From a virus (taxonomy: Duplodnaviria; Heunggongvirae; Uroviricota; Caudoviricetes): a DNA stretch of 13,031 nt. Location: IMG/VR virus record IMGVR_UViG_2548876858_000019. One strand, written 5' to 3'. This document shows, in pieces, positions 2,125 through 13,031 of the stretch. The notes below the pieces were generated by a model that ran no database searches, was not told where the DNA came from, and was given only the letters and a program-made list of their open reading frames with translations. Both the position numbers and the translations under genes were made by a program. The first letter of the stretch is position 1. Each line of letters begins with the position of its first letter.

Positions 2125-2200
2125 TGTATCGAATTTGACACAATACCCGCCCGCAGTAATCAGACCGTCAAGCAAATATCGTTGTACTGTTCACGACACA
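2125..2200 (+). promoter_or_regulatory. two TGT-N12-ACA dyads (Ogr/Delta-box-like) upstream of the portal gene
   Basis: TTGTATCGAATTTGACACAA (2124-2143) and TTGTACTGTTCACGACACAC (2182-2201); each has exact TGT-N12-ACA spacing and shares 14-15 of 20 positions with the dyad upstream of the sid-like gene. Confidence 0.4.
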
Positions 2201-3291: not shown

Positions 3292-4257
3292 TTAATCGGG
3301 AAGGTTACGTAAATCGATATATGAGAAAAATGCGGCACCTTTCTCAGTTAACTCGTATCGAAGATATCGATTTTCCATTATTGGCGTTGTTTTGAGTAGG
3401 CCATGGACCATCATTAACGTGCAAACATTTCTAACCAAAAAACCAGCTAAGTCAGTCGAATTTGATCTTAACCCAGAAAGAATAGTTCCTCTATACAGCA
3501 AAATGAGTCGCATTGCTGTTGTTTTAACTGGCTCTGGAGTTTCGGATAATTTTGTCGGGATCGTTAACTGTGTATTTTCAAATAGCTTATATATTTTACT
3601 GAACTCTTCCTCAGATGGTTTTTTTACTATAGCTTTACTTTCAGGAGAACGTGCAGCTCTGAGAAGTTCAACCTCAGATTTTAAAGCTTCATTTTCCTTC
3701 GTTAGTTTAGATATTTGTTCTATTAACACACTTGACTCTGATATTTCCTTTCCAGAAACCCACCCAAGGAGATTTCTCTCGACACCAATTTGAGGAAGTG
3801 TCTTATAAATTGATATTTGTATATCTTTAATATCCCGAAAAAATTCCACCGGATACCCCTTGACCTTTTGTTTGAAAGCTTCATATTTTGTCGGGTTATC
3901 TAATTCAAGAACTTCCTTACCAACTGTTTTAACTTTTTCATCTAGATATTCGTCATCAATGACTATCGAAAATAGAGGTTTGTTTGTACTTAAAGCATAA
4001 TCATATTCGAGCTCTGTATAGCAATAATCACTGCCGGGAGCAATCGTTCCATAACGCCCTCCCAGAATAAGGATGTAGATATCTGACTCATCTATCCAGC
4101 GCTTAATAATTTCTAACTGGCTTCTGTCTCCAGGCTTAAATAGCTCCATTCCCGCAGGTATATGCCCGGCAGTTAATATGGCACTTACCGCAGCTTGCCT
4201 TTCTTCAATGAGGTCTGTAAAAGTTGATGAAATGAAAACTTGAAATTTCCTATTCAT
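3292..4257 (-). CDS. DUF4062-like domain protein with coiled-coil and C-terminal domain of unknown function (candidate defence cargo)
   Basis: 321 aa from ATG 4255-4257; N-terminus MNRKFQVFISSTFTDLIEERQAAV...ILILGGRYGTIAPGSDYCYTELEYDYA fits the FISSTF/ER/GGRYG/TExEY signature I associate with DUF4062; central coiled-coil (ISKLTKENEALKSEVELLRAA); visibly AT-rich; terminators on both sides. Confidence 0.8.
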   Translation of the reverse strand: MNRKFQVFISSTFTDLIEERQAAVSAILTAGHIPAGMELFKPGDRSQLEIIKRWIDESDIYILILGGRYGTIAPGSDYCYTELEYDYALSTNKPLFSIVIDDEYLDEKVKTVGKEVLELDNPTKYEAFKQKVKGYPVEFFRDIKDIQISIYKTLPQIGVERNLLGWVSGKEISESSVLIEQISKLTKENEALKSEVELLRAARSPESKAIVKKPSEEEFSKIYKLFENTQLTIPTKLSETPEPVKTTAMRLILLYRGTILSGLRSNSTDLAGFLVRNVCTLMMVHGLLKTTPIMENRYLRYELTEKGAAFFSYIDLRNLPD

Positions 4258-4518
4258 TTTTTATCCATATAGAGTTATTGTCATCTAACATACCTACAAA
4301 ATGCTATAGGTAAATTTAAGTTGGTATTATTAGTCTTTTACTAGTATCTAATGCTGAAAAAGTTGATGAAAGAAAGACATTAGACGCAGATACCAACATC
4401 AGAGCATAATCATATGATATAGGTTAAAGCGTGTTCAAGACCGATTAACGTAAGTTCCCTAGATCTCCCCTCAGCGCGAGCAGCCCCGCCCGCCTGCCCG
4501 CTTCGCTTAACAGAATGG

Positions 4519-4632
4519 TTTTCATGCACCCCGTAAATCGCCTCAGGAGCCGCCACACAAGGGCTTTCACGTCAAAAATGATGCATGAGACTCATGCGTT
4601 TTCATGCGCCATAGACATGCACTCATGCGCTC
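4519..4632. repeat. cluster of CATGC-containing direct repeats (TTTTCATGC x2, ACTCATGCG x2, six CATGC cores)
   Basis: Seen at 4519-4527, 4599-4607 (TTTTCATGC) and 4589-4597, 4621-4629 (ACTCATGCG), plus further CATGC at 4583 and 4616; intergenic between Delta terminator and Y promoter region. Confidence 0.35.
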
Positions 4633-4656
4633 TCAGGCCAGCCAGGAAAAAGGCGT

Positions 4657-4683
4657 AAAAAATCCCGGTGCCGGGCCGGGATT
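4657..4683 (-). terminator. rho-independent terminator of the sid-delta operon
   Basis: AATCCCGG-(7 nt)-CCGGGATT hairpin 4661-4683, followed on the minus strand by TTTTTTACGCC; 21 bp downstream of the Delta stop. Confidence 0.6.
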
Positions 4684-4703
4684 AGGTAGGCGTTTTTTGC
4701 TAA

Positions 4704-4976
4704 TCAGACAGGGATTTGCTGGCGGCTTGATAACTTTGATGCAGAGCCATAGCGATTGAGCGTTTGCTGTTGTTTTTCCGGCATTTGTGCTTTGTCTGAT
4801 TCCTGTTCATTGCGCCGGGGCTTCATAATTATCTTATCCACACTTTCCAGAGCGGTAAATGTGCAGGAACATTCAAGATTCTGGCACTGATACCATGAGC
4901 GTTTAACCGACGGTGCTTCATAGGCGGTGGTTCTGGCGTGTGCAACGGTGCCGCATTCAGGACATTTCAGCGCCAT
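4704..4976 (-). CDS. Ogr/Delta-family zinc-finger late-gene transcription activator
   Basis: 90 aa, MALKCPECGTVAHARTTAY...YQCQNLECSCTF: C-x2-C...C-x4-C motif and overall pattern of P2 Ogr / P4 Delta; ATG overlaps the TGA of the upstream sid-like gene (ATGA). Confidence 0.85.
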   Translation of the reverse strand: MALKCPECGTVAHARTTAYEAPSVKRSWYQCQNLECSCTFTALESVDKIIMKPRRNEQESDKAQMPEKQQQTLNRYGSASKLSSRQQIPV

Positions 4977-5737
4977 CAGATACCCTCCATATCACGGTTA
5001 CGTTTCTGCAGCTCTTCACGTTCCTGACGGATCTTCATTTTGTGAAGGGCCGCCGGTGACGGGATTTTGCTTAAATCGACACGAGCCGCATAATCCGGCG
5101 CAACGCCCGCCAGTTTAAACACAGGGTCCAGTTCCGGCATCGCAGTGTTAGCAAGAGCCGGTTTGGTGATATGTTTGTGAATAAAGTCTTTCAGCAGTGT
5201 GTCCGGGTCATTAACTGAATTCACCACCCCCACAACGGCACTGGCTTCCCGCCCCATTGTGGTTTTGAGCAGGCTCAGTGTCTGGATTAACGCCTTACCA
5301 TGCGCCTGCATGAAGTCTTCCCAGATTTGCTTTGCGCGAATTTCCACAAGGGTGTTATGTGCGCTGATATACTGCCCGGCTAATTTCCCGGCTTCCTGCG
5401 GTAATAAGGCATTTTCGCTTTCCTGAGCTGCCAGCAGTTCATCAAAATCCTCAAGCGTTTCTCGTCCCAGCGCAATTTCCGTGCGCAGTTTTTTCATTTC
5501 CTTTGAGACTACGCCCTGACTTTCACGAAACAGCGTGCGCCACTCCTCATTCAGCGCGTTCGTCGTGGCTTCCATTTCAGCCCGGCGCTGGCGGATTGTC
5601 GCAATATTATCCGCTGCCGCTTTCTGCCGACGACGTGCTTCAAGCCATGCGCTTCTGGCTGTATTCAGGGTTTCCATTGCCTGCTGCGTTACAGCCGGAA
5701 AAGTGGAAAGGTTGTTATTCTCTGCGGTGTTGTTCAT
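4976..5737 (-). CDS. Sid/Psu-family protein (P4 capsid size determination-like; Psu-like not excluded)
   Basis: 253 aa, coiled-coil rich; segment AGQYISAHNTLVEIRAKQIWEDFMQAHGKALIQTL matches the Psu/Sid family pattern as I recall it; sits directly upstream of and coupled to delta as sid does in P4; AGGAGA Shine-Dalgarno before ATG 5735-5737. Confidence 0.65.
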   Translation of the reverse strand: MNNTAENNNLSTFPAVTQQAMETLNTARSAWLEARRRQKAAADNIATIRQRRAEMEATTNALNEEWRTLFRESQGVVSKEMKKLRTEIALGRETLEDFDELLAAQESENALLPQEAGKLAGQYISAHNTLVEIRAKQIWEDFMQAHGKALIQTLSLLKTTMGREASAVVGVVNSVNDPDTLLKDFIHKHITKPALANTAMPELDPVFKLAGVAPDYAARVDLSKIPSPAALHKMKIRQEREELQKRNRDMEGI

Positions 5738-5771
5738 GACTTCTCCTGCCGGGTTGGTTCGTTACGTCAAT

Positions 5772-5827
5772 TGTGTCGTGACTGACACAAGCGCACTATC
5801 GGCGCTCAGTGTGTGGTGGCTGGCACA
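5772..5827 (-). promoter_or_regulatory. Psid-like late promoter with two Delta-box dyads
   Basis: TGT-N12-ACA at 5772-5789 (within TTGTGTCGTGACTGACACAA) and at 5810-5827; centres 38 bp apart and about 43 and 81 bp upstream of the sid-like ATG, consistent with activator sites near -18 and -55. Confidence 0.55.
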
Positions 5828-5914
5828 ACGGGCGTTTGCGGTTATTCAGACGCGGCCATGACAGCCAGCCAGATAAAAATGCCTCTGTTTCAGCCTGCTT
5901 TATGTCCCGGATGC

Positions 5915-6110
5915 GGTGAAACAGGTGGAACAGGTGTTACAGCATTGTTTTGTAAAACATTTATATGCACATCACAGGTGAAACATCGCAGGTAACAAGG
6001 TGGAACAGCGGATCGGCTGGCGTTCCACCTGTTCCACCTCACTATTTCAGAAGGTGAAACAGGTTTAGCCCTTGTAAAATACGGGTGTTCCACCTGTTTC
6101 ACCTGTTACC
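5915..6110. repeat. iteron array, candidate replication origin / crr-like site
   Basis: At least nine copies of the 9-mer GGTG(A/G)AACA or its complement TGTT(C/T)CACC: plus orientation at 5915, 5924, 5977, 5999, 6053; minus orientation at 6021/6030, 6086, 6095, with tandem pairs; AT-rich stretch 5941-5970 in the middle; 28 bp downstream of the primase stop. Confidence 0.7.
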
Positions 6111-6137
6111 CTTAATAAATAAGACTCACGCAAAGCC

Positions 6138-8810
6138 TTAACCCGGCACCTCGCTGTTGAAGACATAGAGTCTGCGGGGATTCATCTCTGGCGGGCGAAT
6201 GGTTGTCTGCAGCTTGCCATCGGTGGAGGGCAGCAGGTATCCACGATCCGCGCACAGACGCGCCACCTTGCGCGGGTCAAATCCCCGGCAGATTTCTTTC
6301 CAGCCGGACGGCATGACGTAGAACGTGGTGACGGCCTCCGTGCCCTGCGCGGTACTGCCTTTCTCCACCCTGCGCCAGCCCACCATATTGCCGGGGCGGT
6401 TACGCTCGTCGTGCCAGTCAGCAAAGCGGCTGTACTGATTCGCGGTAAAGAAGCTGCGTACCTGCTCCAGTGCGGCAATATCTTCCTGATTGGCGGTGTG
6501 CCCGCGATCTTTCAGCCATGCGTTCAGGCAGACGCGGGTTGCCCGCAGCGCTTCACCCTCAGGCCAGCCGGTAATACCCAGCCGGGTTGCCAGCTCGCCC
6601 GCCATCGCCACCAGTGCAAAGCGGTTCACAGCCCGGCCTACCTGATTACCCGCATCTTTCGGGGTCAGGGCGGCTGTATATTCCTTCATCAGTGACTTTG
6701 CCTGTGCCGTCAGCCCGTTAAGGTCAGCGGTCAGGGCTTTCAGCCACTCCCTGAACGGCGAACCGTAGTAGCTGGACGTGGCCCACTCCAGATGTTCCGC
6801 CAGAGCCTTGCCGCTGTCGAAGCCGTGCAGCTCCTCAAATACGCCAAATTTCCCGGAATCGCTGGGGATCTGGATCATCCTGACTTCCATCCCGGCAAAG
6901 GTACGCTCACCGGCTTTTGCCGCATGTTCGGTCAGTGACAGCTCGCCGGTTGAAAAGAACAGCAGCCGCCACTGCTTACGGGTGCGCAGCTCACCGTCCG
7001 TACCGGCACGGCCCTTGCCCTGACCGTTTGCCAGCATGTAGGCGATATTACCCGCCTCGCGTCCGTCCACCTCCCGGATCTCATCGAGCATCATGGCGGC
7101 ATCGTTGCGGCGGCTGGCGCATCCCTCCAGCGCGTTGCCGGTTGCCCGCCACGTCTGCCAGTAATCAGGCCCGCCACAAACGGAGGTTGCCGCTTTCATG
7201 GTGGTGGTCTTACCGTCAGTCGATTCCCCCTTGAGGTGGTAGCCGCCGCCGTCCATCCCAACCAGCCGTAACAGGGGTGCAGCAAAGGCCAGACTGACGG
7301 CAAACGCCACGCGGGAGTTACCGGTGCAGTAACGGGAAACGTGCTCCCGCCATTCCTCCGTTGTACCTGACACACGGAAATCGCGCCCCTGCACGGAAGT
7401 GGTCTGGAGAATGACACCCTCTGCACCTTCACCGCTGACCTCATCCTGCAGGACGTAAACCTGACCATGCCAGCCAGTGCGGCTGACGCAGGTCACGCGG
7501 CGTTCCGGTTTACACAGCGAGATATATTCCATCAGGCGGGCGCGGGCCTCACCGGTGGTGCTGATATAGGACAGCCCGTTAACCAGCAGTACCCGGCGTA
7601 GTTCCTCACCGCTACCACTGAGCATTTCCATCGGCATCGCCCAGCGGCGGCGCTCTCCCCATGTATCTTCCCACTCCAGCAGTCGCCCGAAATTACCGCC
7701 ATCAGCATCGCAGGTGATTGCCGTCACGCGCAACGGGTTGCATATTTTGACGTTCTGGATCTCCGTCTCACCGTTGCGCTGTACCTGTTTTTCATACCAG
7801 AGATATTCCTGGGTAAGACGGAACCCGTGCGGCAACTGCGTGCGGCCTTCTCCGCACAGTACAAGACCGTTACGAAAGGCTTCACGGGCACGTGTAATAC
7901 CGTGCTCACGGTGGAAGTCATTCCAGTCAGCTTTAATTTCTCCCGGTGGCAGCGTCACCCAGCCACCGACTGATTTTGCCGCCCGTTCAGCAAAGGATCT
8001 GCCGGGATTCTCGCCCCCGTCCTGAAAATCGTTATCACCGGCGATGATAATTTTTACCTCAGGCCAGCGTGCCCGCAGCGCCTGTGCGACGTTGGGCAGG
8101 TTGCCCGCCGATATGGCCGCCACTACGCATCCGGCGGTGAGCTGGCTTACCGTCAGCGCCGTGGCGTAACCTTCGGTAATCACCACCTGTACCGGCGGTT
8201 CAGACGGTAACGGGCTGAGCGCCACAAACGCGCCTTTCATCGTGCTGCCGGGCAGTATGCTTTTTTCACCCGTCGGGGCGATAAGCTGTGCACCGGTCAC
8301 GGCTCCGGCGTTCGTCGTGAGCGGTAACAGCAGGGAACCGGCAGGGAAATCCTTACCACTGATATGCTGCACGCTCCCGGTCAGGGAGGCCGGGTATCCG
8401 GCGAACCCTTTTCCGGTCAGATAGGGGCTTTCTCCCGTGTGACTCTCTTTCATCAGGGCCGCCACGGTAAGGCTCATATCGCGTTTAGGGGCTTTTTGCC
8501 TGGCGGGCTTAACGGGCAGTTCCTGCACATCCGGCACATTAAGCACCTGCGCCACCTCCTGCGCTGCCTTTCTGATGCCGTAACCGGTTATGAGCTTAAC
8601 CAGATCCAGACCATCACCATTGCCGCACTGGCTGCAAATCCACGTCCCGCGCCCGTCGAGGTCATCGAGGCGGAAGCGATCCTTGCCCCCACATTTCGGG
8701 CAGGGACCGTGCCTGCCGTTTTCAGGTACATCAATACGCAGCATCTGCAGAATGACGGGCCATTTTCCCCGCGCTGCGGCTGAAATCTGCGTAACCGTCT
8801 GTGTTGTCAT
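6138..8810 (-). CDS. P4 alpha-type primase-helicase (zinc finger + Toprim + P-loop NTPase)
   Basis: 890 aa; N-terminal HGPCPKCGG...CSQCGNGDG zinc finger; Toprim-like ITEGYATALTV and IIAGDNDFQDGG; Walker A GESTDGKTT; GGGGGA Shine-Dalgarno; ATG overlaps the TGA of the upstream ORF. Confidence 0.85.
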   Translation of the reverse strand: MTTQTVTQISAAARGKWPVILQMLRIDVPENGRHGPCPKCGGKDRFRLDDLDGRGTWICSQCGNGDGLDLVKLITGYGIRKAAQEVAQVLNVPDVQELPVKPARQKAPKRDMSLTVAALMKESHTGESPYLTGKGFAGYPASLTGSVQHISGKDFPAGSLLLPLTTNAGAVTGAQLIAPTGEKSILPGSTMKGAFVALSPLPSEPPVQVVITEGYATALTVSQLTAGCVVAAISAGNLPNVAQALRARWPEVKIIIAGDNDFQDGGENPGRSFAERAAKSVGGWVTLPPGEIKADWNDFHREHGITRAREAFRNGLVLCGEGRTQLPHGFRLTQEYLWYEKQVQRNGETEIQNVKICNPLRVTAITCDADGGNFGRLLEWEDTWGERRRWAMPMEMLSGSGEELRRVLLVNGLSYISTTGEARARLMEYISLCKPERRVTCVSRTGWHGQVYVLQDEVSGEGAEGVILQTTSVQGRDFRVSGTTEEWREHVSRYCTGNSRVAFAVSLAFAAPLLRLVGMDGGGYHLKGESTDGKTTTMKAATSVCGGPDYWQTWRATGNALEGCASRRNDAAMMLDEIREVDGREAGNIAYMLANGQGKGRAGTDGELRTRKQWRLLFFSTGELSLTEHAAKAGERTFAGMEVRMIQIPSDSGKFGVFEELHGFDSGKALAEHLEWATSSYYGSPFREWLKALTADLNGLTAQAKSLMKEYTAALTPKDAGNQVGRAVNRFALVAMAGELATRLGITGWPEGEALRATRVCLNAWLKDRGHTANQEDIAALEQVRSFFTANQYSRFADWHDERNRPGNMVGWRRVEKGSTAQGTEAVTTFYVMPSGWKEICRGFDPRKVARLCADRGYLLPSTDGKLQTTIRPPEMNPRRLYVFNSEVPG

Positions 8811-9190
8811 ATTTCCCCCTGATACAGCGATACACCCGAGCTGCAGAAGTCATCAAATGCCGCCGGAAGTGTGCGGTACAGCTCCGCCATCACTTCACAG
8901 CCGCGCACAGTCAGTACCGGTGGCGCGGTCAGCAATGATGGCTCCAGCATGTCAGTCAGCAGCGCCAGTGCAGCCGCTGCTCCCTGTGCTTCGCCATATT
9001 CGTTAATCAGTGCGCACTCGATATGCAGGGCAATGGCCATTTCAATACGTTCAACCGTCAGGCTGTGCGGACCATAGTGATCGCAGCCGGTTTCGGTCAG
9101 CGCTTTCTGGCGCCAGGCCGATGCAATAGCCCGCCGGTAAAGCGCAGTGGTCATTTCTGCCGGAAAAATAGAAACCTGCGGCTGGTTCAT
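8807..9190 (-). CDS. hypothetical protein (replication-module small ORF)
   Basis: 127 aa; strong AAGGAGG Shine-Dalgarno 7 nt before ATG; ATGA overlaps at both ends with neighbouring ORFs; no recognisable motif. Confidence 0.5.
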   Translation of the reverse strand: MNQPQVSIFPAEMTTALYRRAIASAWRQKALTETGCDHYGPHSLTVERIEMAIALHIECALINEYGEAQGAAAALALLTDMLEPSLLTAPPVLTVRGCEVMAELYRTLPAAFDDFCSSGVSLYQGEI

Positions 9191-9471
9191 TGGGTGCCTC
9201 CTTCAATCAGTTCGCAACTGTGCGCAATATCCGTCAAATCTGCCCGCAGGTACTCCATCAGCGCGGCGATGCCTGGCGCACATCCTGCATCCAGCGTTCC
9301 GCCCTGCGAGGGGTATTCAGAAAAGAGAAGCTGCAACATGTCGCAGGCCTTTCTGGCGCGGTCCAGCTTTCCGAAACCGTCCTCTGACAACCCATACGCA
9401 AAAGCACCGCTATTGTGTTTTTCAGGCAAAGCGTGGCCCTGAGCACCGTTGTGCCCGTTTGAAATATTCAT
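9187..9471 (-). CDS. hypothetical protein (replication-module small ORF)
   Basis: 94 aa; ATG 9469-9471 with GGAG upstream; stop overlaps the next start (ATGA). Confidence 0.45.
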   Translation of the reverse strand: MNISNGHNGAQGHALPEKHNSGAFAYGLSEDGFGKLDRARKACDMLQLLFSEYPSQGGTLDAGCAPGIAALMEYLRADLTDIAHSCELIEGGTQ

Positions 9472-9502
9472 CGTGGATTACTCCGTTTTCAGCGGTGTTT
9501 TG

Positions 9503-9862
9503 TCAGAGAAACTTTGAATAGTGACTGTCGTCAGGTTCAGCAGAACGCCGTATGCTGCGCTCCCGCCAGCGGGTAAATACCACCGACGGATGCAGCGTCA
9601 GCGAGCCAGAGCCGCTACCCCCCGCGGGAGCTAGCGAAGGTTTAAAGAGCGGGGCATTAAACAGGCGCGTATACCGCTGCTCAAACCATGCCAGAGGGCA
9701 GGAAGAAAGCTTATTGTCGCTGTCATGACGAATCAGCACTTCACAGCTGAATTCAGGGTTAACCAGCGCCACGGAGGGCGAGGCTTCAGTTAATCTGATA
9801 ATCGTGACAGTCCAGCCACGCTCATGCTGCCAGCGTTCGCCGGGTTGCGGATAATTACGCAT
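9503..9862 (-). CDS. hypothetical protein
   Basis: Track ORF starts at TTG 9892; first ATG at 9860-9862 is preceded by GGAGGTG and overlaps the stop of the upstream small ORF (ATGCGTAA); C-terminal half is low complexity (AGGSGSGS). Confidence 0.4.
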   Translation of the reverse strand: MRNYPQPGERWQHERGWTVTIIRLTEASPSVALVNPEFSCEVLIRHDSDNKLSSCPLAWFEQRYTRLFNAPLFKPSLAPAGGSGSGSLTLHPSVVFTRWRERSIRRSAEPDDSHYSKFL

Positions 9863-10031
9863 GTTCACCTCCACAGGGAATGCGACCGGCAAAGCTCAGC
9901 ACATAGTCCGGGGCAAGTCTGCGCCGCGCTGAGCGCTCGTTATCTGCGGTGATCCTTAACATCACAGGACGGGCATTGCGTTGACTGCGGTTGATCGCCG
10001 CAAATAACCAGGTACACTTCTGTTTAGCCAT
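9855..10031 (-). CDS. hypothetical small basic protein (first gene of the leftward operon)
   Basis: Track ORF starts at GTG 10085; ATG 10029-10031 preceded by GAGGT gives 58 aa MAKQKCTWLFAAINRSQRNARPVMLRITADNERSARRRLAPDYV...; coupled to the next ORF. Confidence 0.35.
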   Translation of the reverse strand: MAKQKCTWLFAAINRSQRNARPVMLRITADNERSARRRLAPDYVLSFAGRIPCGGEHA

Positions 10032-10113
10032 TTTCGTTACCTCATCTAACGCTTTGGTCAGACGCCTCGGCAGTGCCGCAAACACTCCGGGGCGTTGCTA
10101 TTTTGATTCCTTG

Positions 10114-10169
10114 TGTGTAATGTGTCATTACACATAAGCACATTACAATAGGTGTAATTGACGTGTCAA
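10114..10169. promoter_or_regulatory. operator-like palindromes in a divergent promoter region
   Basis: Perfect inverted repeat TGTGTAATG-tgt-CATTACACA (10114-10134) and palindrome TTGACGTGTCAA (10158-10169) overlapping the GTG start of the ribbon-helix-helix gene; lies between the leftward small-ORF/primase operon and the rightward RHH gene. Confidence 0.45.
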
Positions 10170-10342
10170 CACACAAGAACGAAAGACGTGGTAATCCACC
10201 ATTCCAGTTCAGACTTGACCCTGAATTGCGTGAGTTAATGGAAGAAGCACAGCAGCAGGATGGTGATGAATCACTGGCTGCTTGGATCAAACGCATTATC
10301 CGCAAAGAGCTACAAAGTCGTGGTTCCGAACCAAAGAACTGA
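10163..10342 (+). CDS. putative ribbon-helix-helix (Arc/CopG-like) DNA-binding protein
   Basis: 59-aa frame from GTG 10163 to TGA 10340-10342, absent from the ORF track (below its 60-aa cutoff); VSTHKNERRGNPPFQFRLDPELRELMEEAQQQDGDESLAAWIKRIIRKEL has the basic N-terminus, short beta-strand and two helices typical of RHH regulators; AGGTG upstream; the antisense 121-aa track ORF looks non-coding. Confidence 0.45.
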   Translation: MSTHKNERRGNPPFQFRLDPELRELMEEAQQQDGDESLAAWIKRIIRKELQSRGSEPKN

Positions 10343-10352
10343 TAAATACATG

Positions 10353-10379
10353 GGGAAGATTTTCTTCTTTCCCATTTTT
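10353..10379 (+). terminator. possible terminator after the RHH gene
   Basis: Imperfect hairpin GGGAAGA-tttt-cTTCTTTCCC followed by ATTTTTC. Confidence 0.3.
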
Positions 10380-10393
10380 CTAAGGTCGTCATA

Positions 10394-10603
10394 TTATTTA
10401 TCAGCATCTGAGGATTGAGCTTTTACCCACTGTCTAATTTCTTGTGCATCGTAAACAGTTACCCGTTTTGAAATACGTGTGGATTTTGGAAATTCAGGAT
10501 TGTTTTTTTCCCAGCGCCAGAGAGTAACTGTGCTTACTTGCAAAAAGTCAGCAGTAGCCCGTGGGCGGGCATGCCCGGTGATAGGGTAAGTTTTTAATGT
10601 CAT
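10394..10603 (-). CDS. alpA: AlpA/Vis-family phage transcriptional regulator
   Basis: 69 aa; TADFLQVSTVTLWRWEKNNPEFPKSTRISKRVTVYDAQEIRQWV fits the AlpA-type helix-turn-helix pattern; typical size and position next to a P4-type integrase. Confidence 0.7.
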   Translation of the reverse strand: MTLKTYPITGHARPRATADFLQVSTVTLWRWEKNNPEFPKSTRISKRVTVYDAQEIRQWVKAQSSDADK

Positions 10604-10609
10604 GAAATT

Positions 10610-10637
10610 ACCTGCCGTGTTATGTAATGAACACGGC
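10610..10637. other. 10-bp-stem hairpin immediately upstream of the alpA start
   Basis: CTGCCGTGTT-(8 nt)-AACACGGCAG; on the minus strand its 3' arm runs into the alpA ribosome-binding site (CAGGTAATTTCATG). Confidence 0.4.
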
Positions 10638-10710
10638 AGATGATGGCAAGGTTAGGGCTAAATTATCAGTGCCACTATTTTGTTTTTATGATGGTATAAA
10701 ATATTACCAC

Positions 10711-11685
10711 TTAAAATCTTCCTGCTTTAGATGAGCTAAGACATTCTTTTATCTTATCTTTTCCAAGTTCAACCTTTGTTTTTGGATTGTTTCTTTCTGC
10801 CACGATTTTATCTGCCCACGCGTCAATAGTCAGTTTTCCTCGTTTTCCATTGCAAGATGCTGGGTCATTTAGTAACCAATAAATAGCTGCTTTGTACACT
10901 GCCTCTCTTTTTGTTGCTGATGCTTCAACATTACCATGCACTCTTCGGATGCTTTCGATGCTGGATACACCACCATTCACATAGCTGGGTAGCTCTTTGC
11001 CAACACCGTTATCTAATTTTTCTATTTGGTATCTTGTTAAATAGATATCATCCAGTGTTATATTTCCAATAATATTTTTATTAGATGGAGATACTAATCC
11101 CTCTATTGATGATAAGCCTTCGAAAGGGGACATTGCTAATATTACCCACTCATCACTGCCAAATGCAGCATTAGTGAATGGCATATTAGCTTCTTTAAAA
11201 GAAATATCATGTGCTAATAGCCTTGCTTTACCATATACCTTTAGTTCTTTGTATAATGAAGATGTTGGGCTGATGACACATATAGACCACAATCCAGAAA
11301 GTAAGATTAATGGGCTTTTTATATTTGGTTTGTTTTCTAAATGGTATATTTGTTTTGGAGGTGAAAATGGCTTATCTTCTGTATAATCAATATCGAATTT
11401 TGCTTTTGGTATGAAATGGCTTAATGCAGATTTATTACTATAGTTTAATACTCTGGGTGGGTACATGTTTTCCCAATCTTTAAAATCTCCACCTTTACGC
11501 ATCATCATTAGCGCAGCTTCGAAACCATTTAATTCTAAGCAAAATTCGATAATTCCAATTTGAGCAAAATGGATAAGGTCATCAATTTGGCAATTAAGTA
11601 GTTCAGCAGCTCGTTTTAGGGAGCAAAATTCCATTACAGGAATACTATTCCTTTCCCAAACATTTAATCGTGTATTATCGCTCAT
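10711..11685 (-). CDS. hypothetical protein X, AT-rich, between integrase and alpA
   Basis: Track ORF starts at TTG 11763 overlapping the int stop; ATG 11683-11685 has a good AGGTGA Shine-Dalgarno and gives 324 aa starting MSDNTRLNVWERNSIPVMEF; no motif I can name; visibly AT-rich. Confidence 0.6.
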   Translation of the reverse strand: MSDNTRLNVWERNSIPVMEFCSLKRAAELLNCQIDDLIHFAQIGIIEFCLELNGFEAALMMMRKGGDFKDWENMYPPRVLNYSNKSALSHFIPKAKFDIDYTEDKPFSPPKQIYHLENKPNIKSPLILLSGLWSICVISPTSSLYKELKVYGKARLLAHDISFKEANMPFTNAAFGSDEWVILAMSPFEGLSSIEGLVSPSNKNIIGNITLDDIYLTRYQIEKLDNGVGKELPSYVNGGVSSIESIRRVHGNVEASATKREAVYKAAIYWLLNDPASCNGKRGKLTIDAWADKIVAERNNPKTKVELGKDKIKECLSSSKAGRF

Positions 11686-11759
11686 CACGTCACCTGTATG
11701 CACATATGGTAAAATGGGGCGAATAGCAGACTTTACTACTATTAGCCATTTTCTTATTT

Positions 11760-13031
11760 TCAAACAACGCGTAGTTTTTTCATTTTATAGGGGGCAATAT
11801 ATCTATCAGTGTTAGCTTCAATATAATTAGACCACCATTGCATCATCCGACGACGTTCATGCATATGCTGAGCTAAGTGTACATAAGCGGCTCGCACTTC
11901 ATTTCGTTCTTGATGGCTCATTTGCCGTTCTACTGCATCCCTCGACCATAAGCCTGATTCTGTCAGGGCTGAGCACGCCATTGCCCTAAATCCATGAAGG
12001 CAAATGTCCACCTGCGTGTCGTACCCCATAATTCTTAATGACTTATTAACTGTGTTCTCACTCATTGGTTTGTAAGGGTTACTATCTCCGGGGAAAATAA
12101 GTTCATACTCACCACTTATTTTTTTAATAGCTTCGAGAACATCAATAGCTTCATTAGATAATGGAACATAATGAATACTGCCCATTTTTGCCCCACGCTC
12201 TGAATATTTTACCCCATCAATTCTTTTTCTTTGAGCAGGAATAGTCCACATTGCATTTTCAAAATTAATTTCCTCCCATCTTGCGTGTCTCAGTTCACTG
12301 GAGCGAACAAAAGTATGAAGAGAAAATAATACTGCCAGCTTAGTTAACGGCCTCCCTGTATAGCTATCAATTTTTGATATTAATTCGGGTAATCGTTCTA
12401 ACGGAAGTGCAGGGCGATGCTTTATTTTGGGGCTGGAAATTGCTCCTCTTAGATCATGGGTAGGATTGTATTCAACAATTCCACGCTGAATAGCGTACCG
12501 GAAAACGCTTGCAAGAGTAGTTTTCACTCTTCCTGTTGTTGCTCCAATTCCCTGATCACTCATCCTCACCAATAATGGCAACAGGTCACTTGTTTTTAAT
12601 GAGTCGATGGGTTTATTTCCGATATATGGGAAAATATGATTTTCCATTTCTCTTAAAATTTTAGTGCGGGTAATCTCTTTCCATGAGGGATGGCCTATAG
12701 AGCCTTTATGCCACTCTAAAGCGATTGTCTGGAATGTAGCAGAGGCGGGTTCTGTTGGCGCTGCTTTTTTAGATACTCTGGGATCAACACCGTCGGCTAA
12801 AAGTTGCCTTGCTTCATCTCTACGCTTACGGGCAAGTGCCAGCGAAACGTCTGGGAAAACGCCCAAAGCCAGCGTAGCTTGTTTGCCGTTAAATCTGTAG
12901 TTCATTCGCCATGCCTTGGTCCCGTTCTTTTTAACTAAAAGATACAGGCTTCCCCCATCCGTCAGTTTGTAGTCTGTTTCTTTGGGTTTAGCGTTTTCAA
13001 CTTTCTTGGGTGATAGCTCATTTAGTGCCAT
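11760..13031 (-). CDS. tyrosine recombinase, P4 / CP4-57 IntA-type integrase
   Basis: 423 aa; N-terminal arm-binding region (YKLTDGGSLYLLVKKNGTKAWRMNYRFNGK); catalytic-region HGFR (HxxR) and tyrosine in RAAYVHL; start codon is the last three bases of the window, facing the presumed tRNA. Confidence 0.9.
   Translation of the reverse strand: MALNELSPKKVENAKPKETDYKLTDGGSLYLLVKKNGTKAWRMNYRFNGKQATLALGVFPDVSLALARKRRDEARQLLADGVDPRVSKKAAPTEPASATFQTIALEWHKGSIGHPSWKEITRTKILREMENHIFPYIGNKPIDSLKTSDLLPLLVRMSDQGIGATTGRVKTTLASVFRYAIQRGIVEYNPTHDLRGAISSPKIKHRPALPLERLPELISKIDSYTGRPLTKLAVLFSLHTFVRSSELRHARWEEINFENAMWTIPAQRKRIDGVKYSERGAKMGSIHYVPLSNEAIDVLEAIKKISGEYELIFPGDSNPYKPMSENTVNKSLRIMGYDTQVDICLHGFRAMACSALTESGLWSRDAVERQMSHQERNEVRAAYVHLAQHMHERRRMMQWWSNYIEANTDRYIAPYKMKKLRVV

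Follow-up and report, generated by a model that had tools for sequence, protein, structure and literature searches.

A probable Psid-type late promoter with two candidate activator boxes upstream of the sid–delta operon of a P4-like satellite prophage

The region 5770–5827 on the minus strand of the window, by which we mean the whole 13,031-nucleotide stretch of viral DNA that was analysed (IMG/VR record IMGVR_UViG_2548876858_000019), is very probably the late promoter of the sid–delta operon of a P4-like satellite prophage and orthologous to the Psid promoter of P4, as judged from its sequence. The DNA itself is that of Escherichia coli, being 99.9% identical to strain EC1515. A preliminary description of this DNA had read the region as a Psid-type promoter, and that reading is borne out by a dyad geometry identical to that of P4, by the presence of the same arrangement in all related loci, by the ranks of both sites in a weight-matrix scan and by the Sid and Ogr/Delta genes that lie downstream. 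On this identification the promoter is a Psid orthologue of a known type, a well-conserved activator-dependent late promoter, which taken alone merely confirms the annotation of a P4-like prophage and adds little by itself. The two boxes, their spacing of 38–39 bp and the motif CACAATT together form a compact signature for finding satellite genes under Delta/Ogr control.

The consensus of the Ogr-dependent late promoters of phage P2 is TGT-N12-ACA, and Ogr is a zinc protein of the form CX2CX22CX4C (PMC3931495). P2 Ogr also trans-activates P4, such that delta, psu and sid are expressed, and Delta is itself an Ogr homologue (PMC7552001); psu, delta and sid are contiguous and have one promoter in common (PMC13586616). 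Neither the GenBank nor the RefSeq record of P4 annotates Psid or its start.

Two perfect dyads upstream of sid

A dyad scan of the window found perfect TGT-N12-ACA dyads at both 5772–5789 and 5810–5827. The centres are at 5780.5 and 5818.5, a spacing of 38 bp. Counted from the A of the ATG at 5737 (minus strand), they are 43.5 and 81.5 bp upstream. These figures agree with the preliminary description, which had placed two dyads about 43 and 81 bp upstream of a sid-like ATG at a spacing of 38 bp. The right half of the proximal dyad overlaps the probable −10 element. The features of the promoter region are as follows:

5810–5827, minus strand: candidate distal activator box (plus strand TGTGTGGTGGCTGGCACA; minus strand TGTGCCAGCCACCACACA), predicted centre about −55.5
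5772–5789, minus strand: candidate proximal activator box (plus strand TGTGTCGTGACTGACACA; minus strand TGTGTCAGTCACGACACA), predicted centre about −17.5
5770–5775, minus strand: CACAAT, a probable −10 hexamer within the invariant motif CACAATT (CACAATTGA in all lineages but P4)
5760–5766, minus strand: predicted transcription start, best guess A5763, derived from the geometry of P2 PO and PP
5743–5747, minus strand: Shine-Dalgarno sequence AGGAG, read from the sequence, 5 nt before the ATG at 5737

The number of such dyads is not significant by itself: the window holds five against 2.83 expected, and at least five occurred in 30 of 200 shuffles. The arrangement of the dyads, unlike their count, is significant. 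Of 3000 sequences simulated from the window with a first-order Markov model, only 0.33% had a pair spaced 36–40 bp apart anywhere, and 0.17% had two pairs, each no more than 60 bp apart.

A weight-matrix scan, the check that the preliminary description had suggested, gave the same two sites. For this purpose we left out the window's own lineage, built a symmetrised matrix from the boxes of the others and scored it on the window and on 200 shuffled windows. The two sites upstream of sid took the first two ranks in the window, with 24.6 bits for 5772–5789 and 20.8 bits for 5810–5827, while the top score over all shuffled windows was 18.4 bits and thus below both. The extended form of the dyad is TTGT...ACAA. 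A control matrix, built without P4 and without the window's lineage, returned the Psid distal, PLL and Psid proximal dyads as its top three matches in P4, and in P2 it placed the annotated activator sites of PF and of PO/PP among the top three. A joint top match in P2 (L071), at 32845–32862 inside the old gene, has no annotated activator site and may be due to chance. The fifth perfect TGT-N12-ACA dyad of the window, at 11263–11280, was also considered as an activator site; because it lies within a hypothetical coding region and its matrix score is 0.9 bits, we treat it as probably a chance occurrence.

The sid and delta genes and their surroundings

Directly downstream of the promoter lie two genes:

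4976–5737, minus strand: sid homologue, 253 aa, first gene of the operon (Pfam Psu family, 1.1e-7; PHROG 6165, 7.6e-94, full length)
4704–4976, minus strand: delta homologue, 90 aa, one zinc finger, same operon (Pfam Ogr_Delta, 1.1e-16; one CX2C...CX4C motif)

The product of the first gene is 25% identical to P4 Sid from end to end (E = 6e-14), and its match to P4 Psu covers 28 residues only. The product of the second shares 47% identity with P2 Ogr, and the two halves of the 166-aa Delta of P4 each align to it. The naming of the two genes as sid and delta in the preliminary description is upheld by these comparisons, with the PHROG 6165 and P4 Sid matches speaking for the one and the Ogr_Delta match for the other.

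Along the minus strand, the genes run from an integrase (11760–13031) through a hypothetical gene, an AlpA-like helix-turn-helix gene (10394–10603), Icd-like and small genes and a DUF5375 gene to a primase (6138–8810, minus strand, 890 aa, Toprim and DUF927), which is followed by a 400-bp non-coding region, sid and delta. From the integrase to delta (4704–13031), all satellite genes thus lie on one strand, with sid–delta downstream of the primase. No psu gene is present in the window, where sid is followed directly by delta, while close relatives (e.g. L004, 4105–5674) have the order sid–psu–delta. [quoted passage not shown] The window has int, an AlpA-like gene (a weak Pfam match), sid, delta and a primase among these; epsilon was not identified and psu is absent, a gene set that corresponds to type B. 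The primase, with its Toprim and DUF927 domains, belongs to a Pfam family other than the alpha profile PF03288 of the same survey. At about 1691–1712 on the minus strand, a remnant of the 3′-end of a tRNA-Arg gene forms the left junction of the island; the window holds no complete tRNA gene, and most E. coli genomes have a tRNA-Arg at that junction.

The operon is flanked by two further elements:

5912–6113, no strand assigned: iteron cluster, GGTGAAACAGG / GGTGGAACAGG in both orientations, between the primase stop and the promoter
4468–4703, no strand assigned: conserved block downstream of delta, from an alignment of satellites with different cargo

The iterons, whose motif is GGTGRAACAGG, fall within the 400-bp non-coding region and probably constitute the replication origin. 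They are placed as in P4, in which the annotated type 1 repeats of ori (9310–9413) lie upstream of the dyads that begin at 9493. The block downstream of delta holds a G+C-rich cos-like core, GCAGCCCCGCCCGCCTGCCCGC, at 4480–4501, and the variable cargo begins at its left edge. The core looks like the cohesive-end sequence of P2/P4, yet neither the 19-mer of the P2/P4 cos site, with as many as 3 mismatches allowed, nor 500-bp cos regions gave a match, and we infer that the block is probably a cos site that belongs to another helper group. The P4 hotspot has been placed beside cos (PMC9122126), which fits a cos-like block between delta and the variable cargo. In the window, a DUF4062 gene (3292–4257) fills the variable cargo slot that separates the portal gene described below from the cos-like block; the same slot in related satellites holds either an AAA ATPase or a gene of 120 aa. 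None of the DUF4062 protein, a 324-aa hypothetical protein and the portal was assigned to a defence system by PADLOC.

Conservation across loci with a Sid homologue

The promoter was compared across 66 loci, 59 of them from viral contigs, found with a profile of 18 Sid proteins, and seven from genomes of other genera. The scan of genome contigs, which used a single Sid protein, gave seven close loci only, and it was the profile scan of the viral contigs that supplied the diversity; the Sid proteins of the 66 loci range from 99% down to 43% identity to that of the window. Two perfect dyads 38 or 39 bp apart lie upstream of sid in every one of the 66, with centres 79.5–84.5 and 41.5–45.5 bp upstream of the sid ATG. 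These loci comprise 39 distinct upstream sequences from about six lineages.

When representatives of the lineages are aligned, the invariant columns are the two TGT and the two ACA, the C before the proximal ACA and the ATT after it, so that the proximal right half-site reads CACAATT, the sole invariant block of the cross-lineage alignment besides the half-sites. The twelve inner bases of the boxes, the 20–21 bp spacer and the leader vary freely between lineages. The TGT and ACA of the distal box are unchanged in P4 and in all 66 related loci. In the proximal box the left TGT is constant in 67 sequences and matches no sigma-70 element, and the distance of its TGT and ACA to the −10 element is constant across lineages.

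Since the left TGT of the proximal box is invariant at a place where no sigma-70 element sits, it points to a protein site rather than to a part of the core promoter. The proximal ACA overlaps the −10 element, and part of the conservation of the proximal dyad could therefore reflect the −10 element alone, which would leave unexplained the invariant TGT that lies 12 bp upstream. The strict conservation of the −18 box argues for a selected function. The two-box design runs through the whole Sid-bearing family sampled, although every Delta examined but that of P4 is single-domain: in the loci examined, P4's excepted, the Deltas have one zinc-finger motif and a length of 90–124 aa. Since only the Delta of P4 departs from this form, the two-box design is independent of P4's tandem Delta.

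Core promoter and proposed mechanism

A consensus scan of 5400–6400 found no sigma-70 promoter with both hexamers, and at the −35 position stands TAGTGC, which agrees with TTGACA in only 2 of 6 bases; both are expected of an activator-dependent promoter. We placed the start of transcription by reference to the P2 record, whose annotated starts put the centre of the activator dyad at −55.5 in PO and PP and at −57.5 in PF. Subtracting the PO/PP distance of 55.5 from the distal centre at 5818.5 gives a predicted +1 at about 5763, which is an A on the minus strand. This would put the proximal dyad at about −17.5 and is consistent with the preliminary description, which had a start near 5762 and sites at −55 and −18. 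With +1 at 5763, CACAAT (5775–5770) falls at −12 to −7 with the start 7 nt downstream of it, and the predicted leader is about 26 nt. Terminator prediction gave nothing between the primase gene and the promoter, so read-through from the primase operon may add to the expression of sid.

We propose that an Ogr/Delta zinc-finger activator, which may be either the Ogr of the helper phage or the satellite's own 90-aa Delta, binds the dyad whose centre lies about 55 bp before the start and brings in RNA polymerase at a core that has a usable −10 element (CACAAT) but lacks a −35 element. Activation of the P2 late promoters works by recruitment of polymerase via its alpha subunit. We read the distal box as a class-I-type site for both helper Ogr and satellite Delta because of the literature on Ogr and P4 and of established knowledge. 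Transcription would run from near A5763 through a leader of ~26 nt with a strong Shine-Dalgarno sequence into sid and delta. The helper's Ogr would trigger the operon and Delta would then sustain its expression by positive feedback, and since delta lies within the operon, such a circuit would be self-reinforcing. The second dyad, near −18 and over the −10 element, may be a further binding site for the same activator. It would not be needed for activation and would modulate the output, its most likely effect being to limit or time expression as Delta builds up. Delta is said to leave a footprint at −18 in Psid of P4.

Alternative explanations

Both boxes might bind the activator and both might be required, the −18 box being a co-activator site, which might for example reshape the spacer or hold polymerase, and no brake. 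The proximal TGT and ACA are as invariant as the distal ones in all lineages, they keep a fixed distance to the −10 element, and the spacing of the boxes is held at 38–39 bp, all of which speak for this reading. We nevertheless consider this unlikely, as P2 late promoters function with one site at about −55 and competition with polymerase is to be expected from a protein that covers about −27 to −10. The second site of Psid has been reported as not required for activation. It is also conceivable that the distal dyad alone is a protein site and that the proximal ‘dyad’ is conserved as core promoter, that is, as the −10 element and spacer. The right half-site ACA does fall within the invariant CACAATT, but the left TGT, at about −27 to −25, is invariant in the 67 sequences with no sigma-70 element matched, the bases between the half-sites vary freely, and the matrix from other lineages gives its top score to the proximal site, so that we regard conservation as core promoter as quite improbable.

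There is very little room for the dyads being sites of a regulator other than Ogr/Delta, such as CRP, or an origin element bound by the primase. The proximal site of the window also contains TGT-N10-ACA, a CRP-like spacing, and the origin iterons are about 90 bp upstream. The N10 reading exists only in the window's lineage, however, whereas N12 is kept in all; the iterons have a different motif, GGTGRAACAGG; and one and the same matrix picks out both the three dyads of P4 and the annotated Ogr/Delta-dependent sites of P2. A CRP-activated promoter (TGTGA-N6-TCACA, with TGT-N10-ACA spacing) was rejected specifically on the ground that N10 is not conserved among the orthologues. That the dyads are chance matches, or RNA hairpins on read-through transcripts of the primase operon, we hold to be extremely improbable. 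The window-wide count of dyads is not significant and no upstream terminator was found, which would suit either version, but a pair at such spacing is rare in the simulated windows (0.33%) and its conservation in 66 of 66 loci excludes chance. The predicted RNA fold of 5738–5850 is no stabler than that of shuffled sequences (z = +0.59) and has no Rfam match, and an RNA-structure reading of this segment was rejected on both counts. The preferred reading remains that of two sites for an Ogr/Delta activator, of which the distal one would activate and the proximal one would modulate.

A second pair of boxes upstream of a portal gene

The third and fourth ranks of the matrix scan fall on a second pair of dyads, which lies on the opposite strand upstream of a portal gene:

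2125–2142, plus strand: distal dyad of the second pair, TGTATCGAATTTGACACA, followed by AT to give CACAAT; rank 3, 14.4 bits
2183–2200, plus strand: proximal dyad of the second pair, TGTACTGTTCACGACACA; rank 4, 14.4 bits
2237–3262, plus strand: intact P2 gpQ-type portal gene, 341 aa (TIGR01540, 3.3e-101; PHROG 68, 3.4e-169; full-length alignment to P2 gpQ)

This pair has its centres 103.5 and 45.5 bp before the ATG of the portal gene, and the geometry differs from that of Psid in that the boxes are 58 bp apart rather than 38 bp. The pair is kept in the relatives L072, L073, L162 and L011, and both dyads are present in all five satellite variants. In L072 and L162 the homology to the window begins at the distal dyad (2125–2142), and in the relatives the proximal dyad retains its TGT and ACA while its inner bases differ. 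An identical portal–DUF4062–delta–sid–primase block was found in several chromosomal contexts, and variants with other cargo were found in other E. coli strains and in Pantoea stewartii; for these reasons we assign the portal gene to the satellite. All portal-bearing loci examined are without psu.

The portal protein is 84–93% identical to the portals of P2-like phage contigs, with most matches beginning near residue 20, and at the DNA level the similarity to phages begins at 2309, 72 bp inside the gene. In none of 80 phage loci was a dyad found within 260 bp upstream of the portal match, and 62 of the 80 have a long open reading frame upstream, like the terminase gene P of P2.

The satellite-borne portal gene is a probable second target of Delta/Ogr control. 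We think it possible, though somewhat short of probable, that in this psu-less lineage the Delta/Ogr regulon extends beyond sid to the portal, a copy of the helper's gene behind a new upstream region with the two boxes, and that the −18 box, kept throughout alongside single-domain Deltas, is an obligatory operator of the family and no peculiarity of P4. If 2125–2200 is a working late promoter, a P4-like satellite makes its own portal protein under late control, which, if confirmed, would alter the view of P4-like elements as having no virion structural genes besides Sid and Psu. The satellite papers searched make no mention of a portal gene in P4-like elements, an absence from those texts that is no proof of novelty.

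Comparison with the promoters of P4 and P2

In P4 (NC_001609) the only dyads near sid are at 9493–9510 and 9531–9548, with the sid ATG at 9583. Their centres are 81.5 and 43.5 bp upstream of that ATG and 38 bp apart, an exact match to the window, and the P4-like spacing that the preliminary description had claimed for the two boxes is thus identical to that of P4 itself. P4 Psid further resembles the window promoter in that CACAAT overlaps the proximal dyad and origin iterons lie just upstream, and in both elements sid is first in its operon and the activator gene belongs to the same operon. In contrast, the sequences of the two promoters are only 37.5% identical without gaps and are essentially unalignable outside the boxes. 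A MAFFT alignment of the two promoter regions misplaces the boxes; we compared them without gaps instead, with the ATG as anchor, and the identical positions coincide with the half-sites, CACAATT and a TAAC at the predicted start. The two systems also differ in their activator, a 90-aa single-domain protein in the window and a 166-aa tandem Delta in P4, and in their operon, which is sid–delta without psu in the window and sid–delta–psu in P4. Moreover, the sid operon of the window is downstream of and co-directional with the primase operon, whereas the operons of P4 are divergent.

P4 has another promoter of this kind in PLL, the late promoter of the alpha operon, whose Delta/Ogr-type dyad (9133–9150) is recovered by the same matrix. 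PLL drives an operon for replication and regulation, and no counterpart of it is detectable in the window, where neither a dyad nor a matrix match was found upstream of the alpA-like gene (10394–10603).

The late promoters PP, PO, PV and PF of P2 share with the window promoter the half-site motif, a dyad about 55 bp upstream of the start and the lack of a sigma-70 consensus, and within a helper–satellite pair they and the window promoter form the same regulon. Their dyads fit TGT-N12-ACA at 5 of 6 bases (..CCA for ..ACA), unlike the perfect dyads of the window, so the rule of a perfect dyad is looser than the pattern suggests. Where the window promoter has two boxes, the P2 late promoters are each annotated with a single activator site and lack a −18 box. 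A second dyad ~38 bp downstream, over the −10 element, is the feature that separates Psid from the P2 promoters, and it is present in the window.
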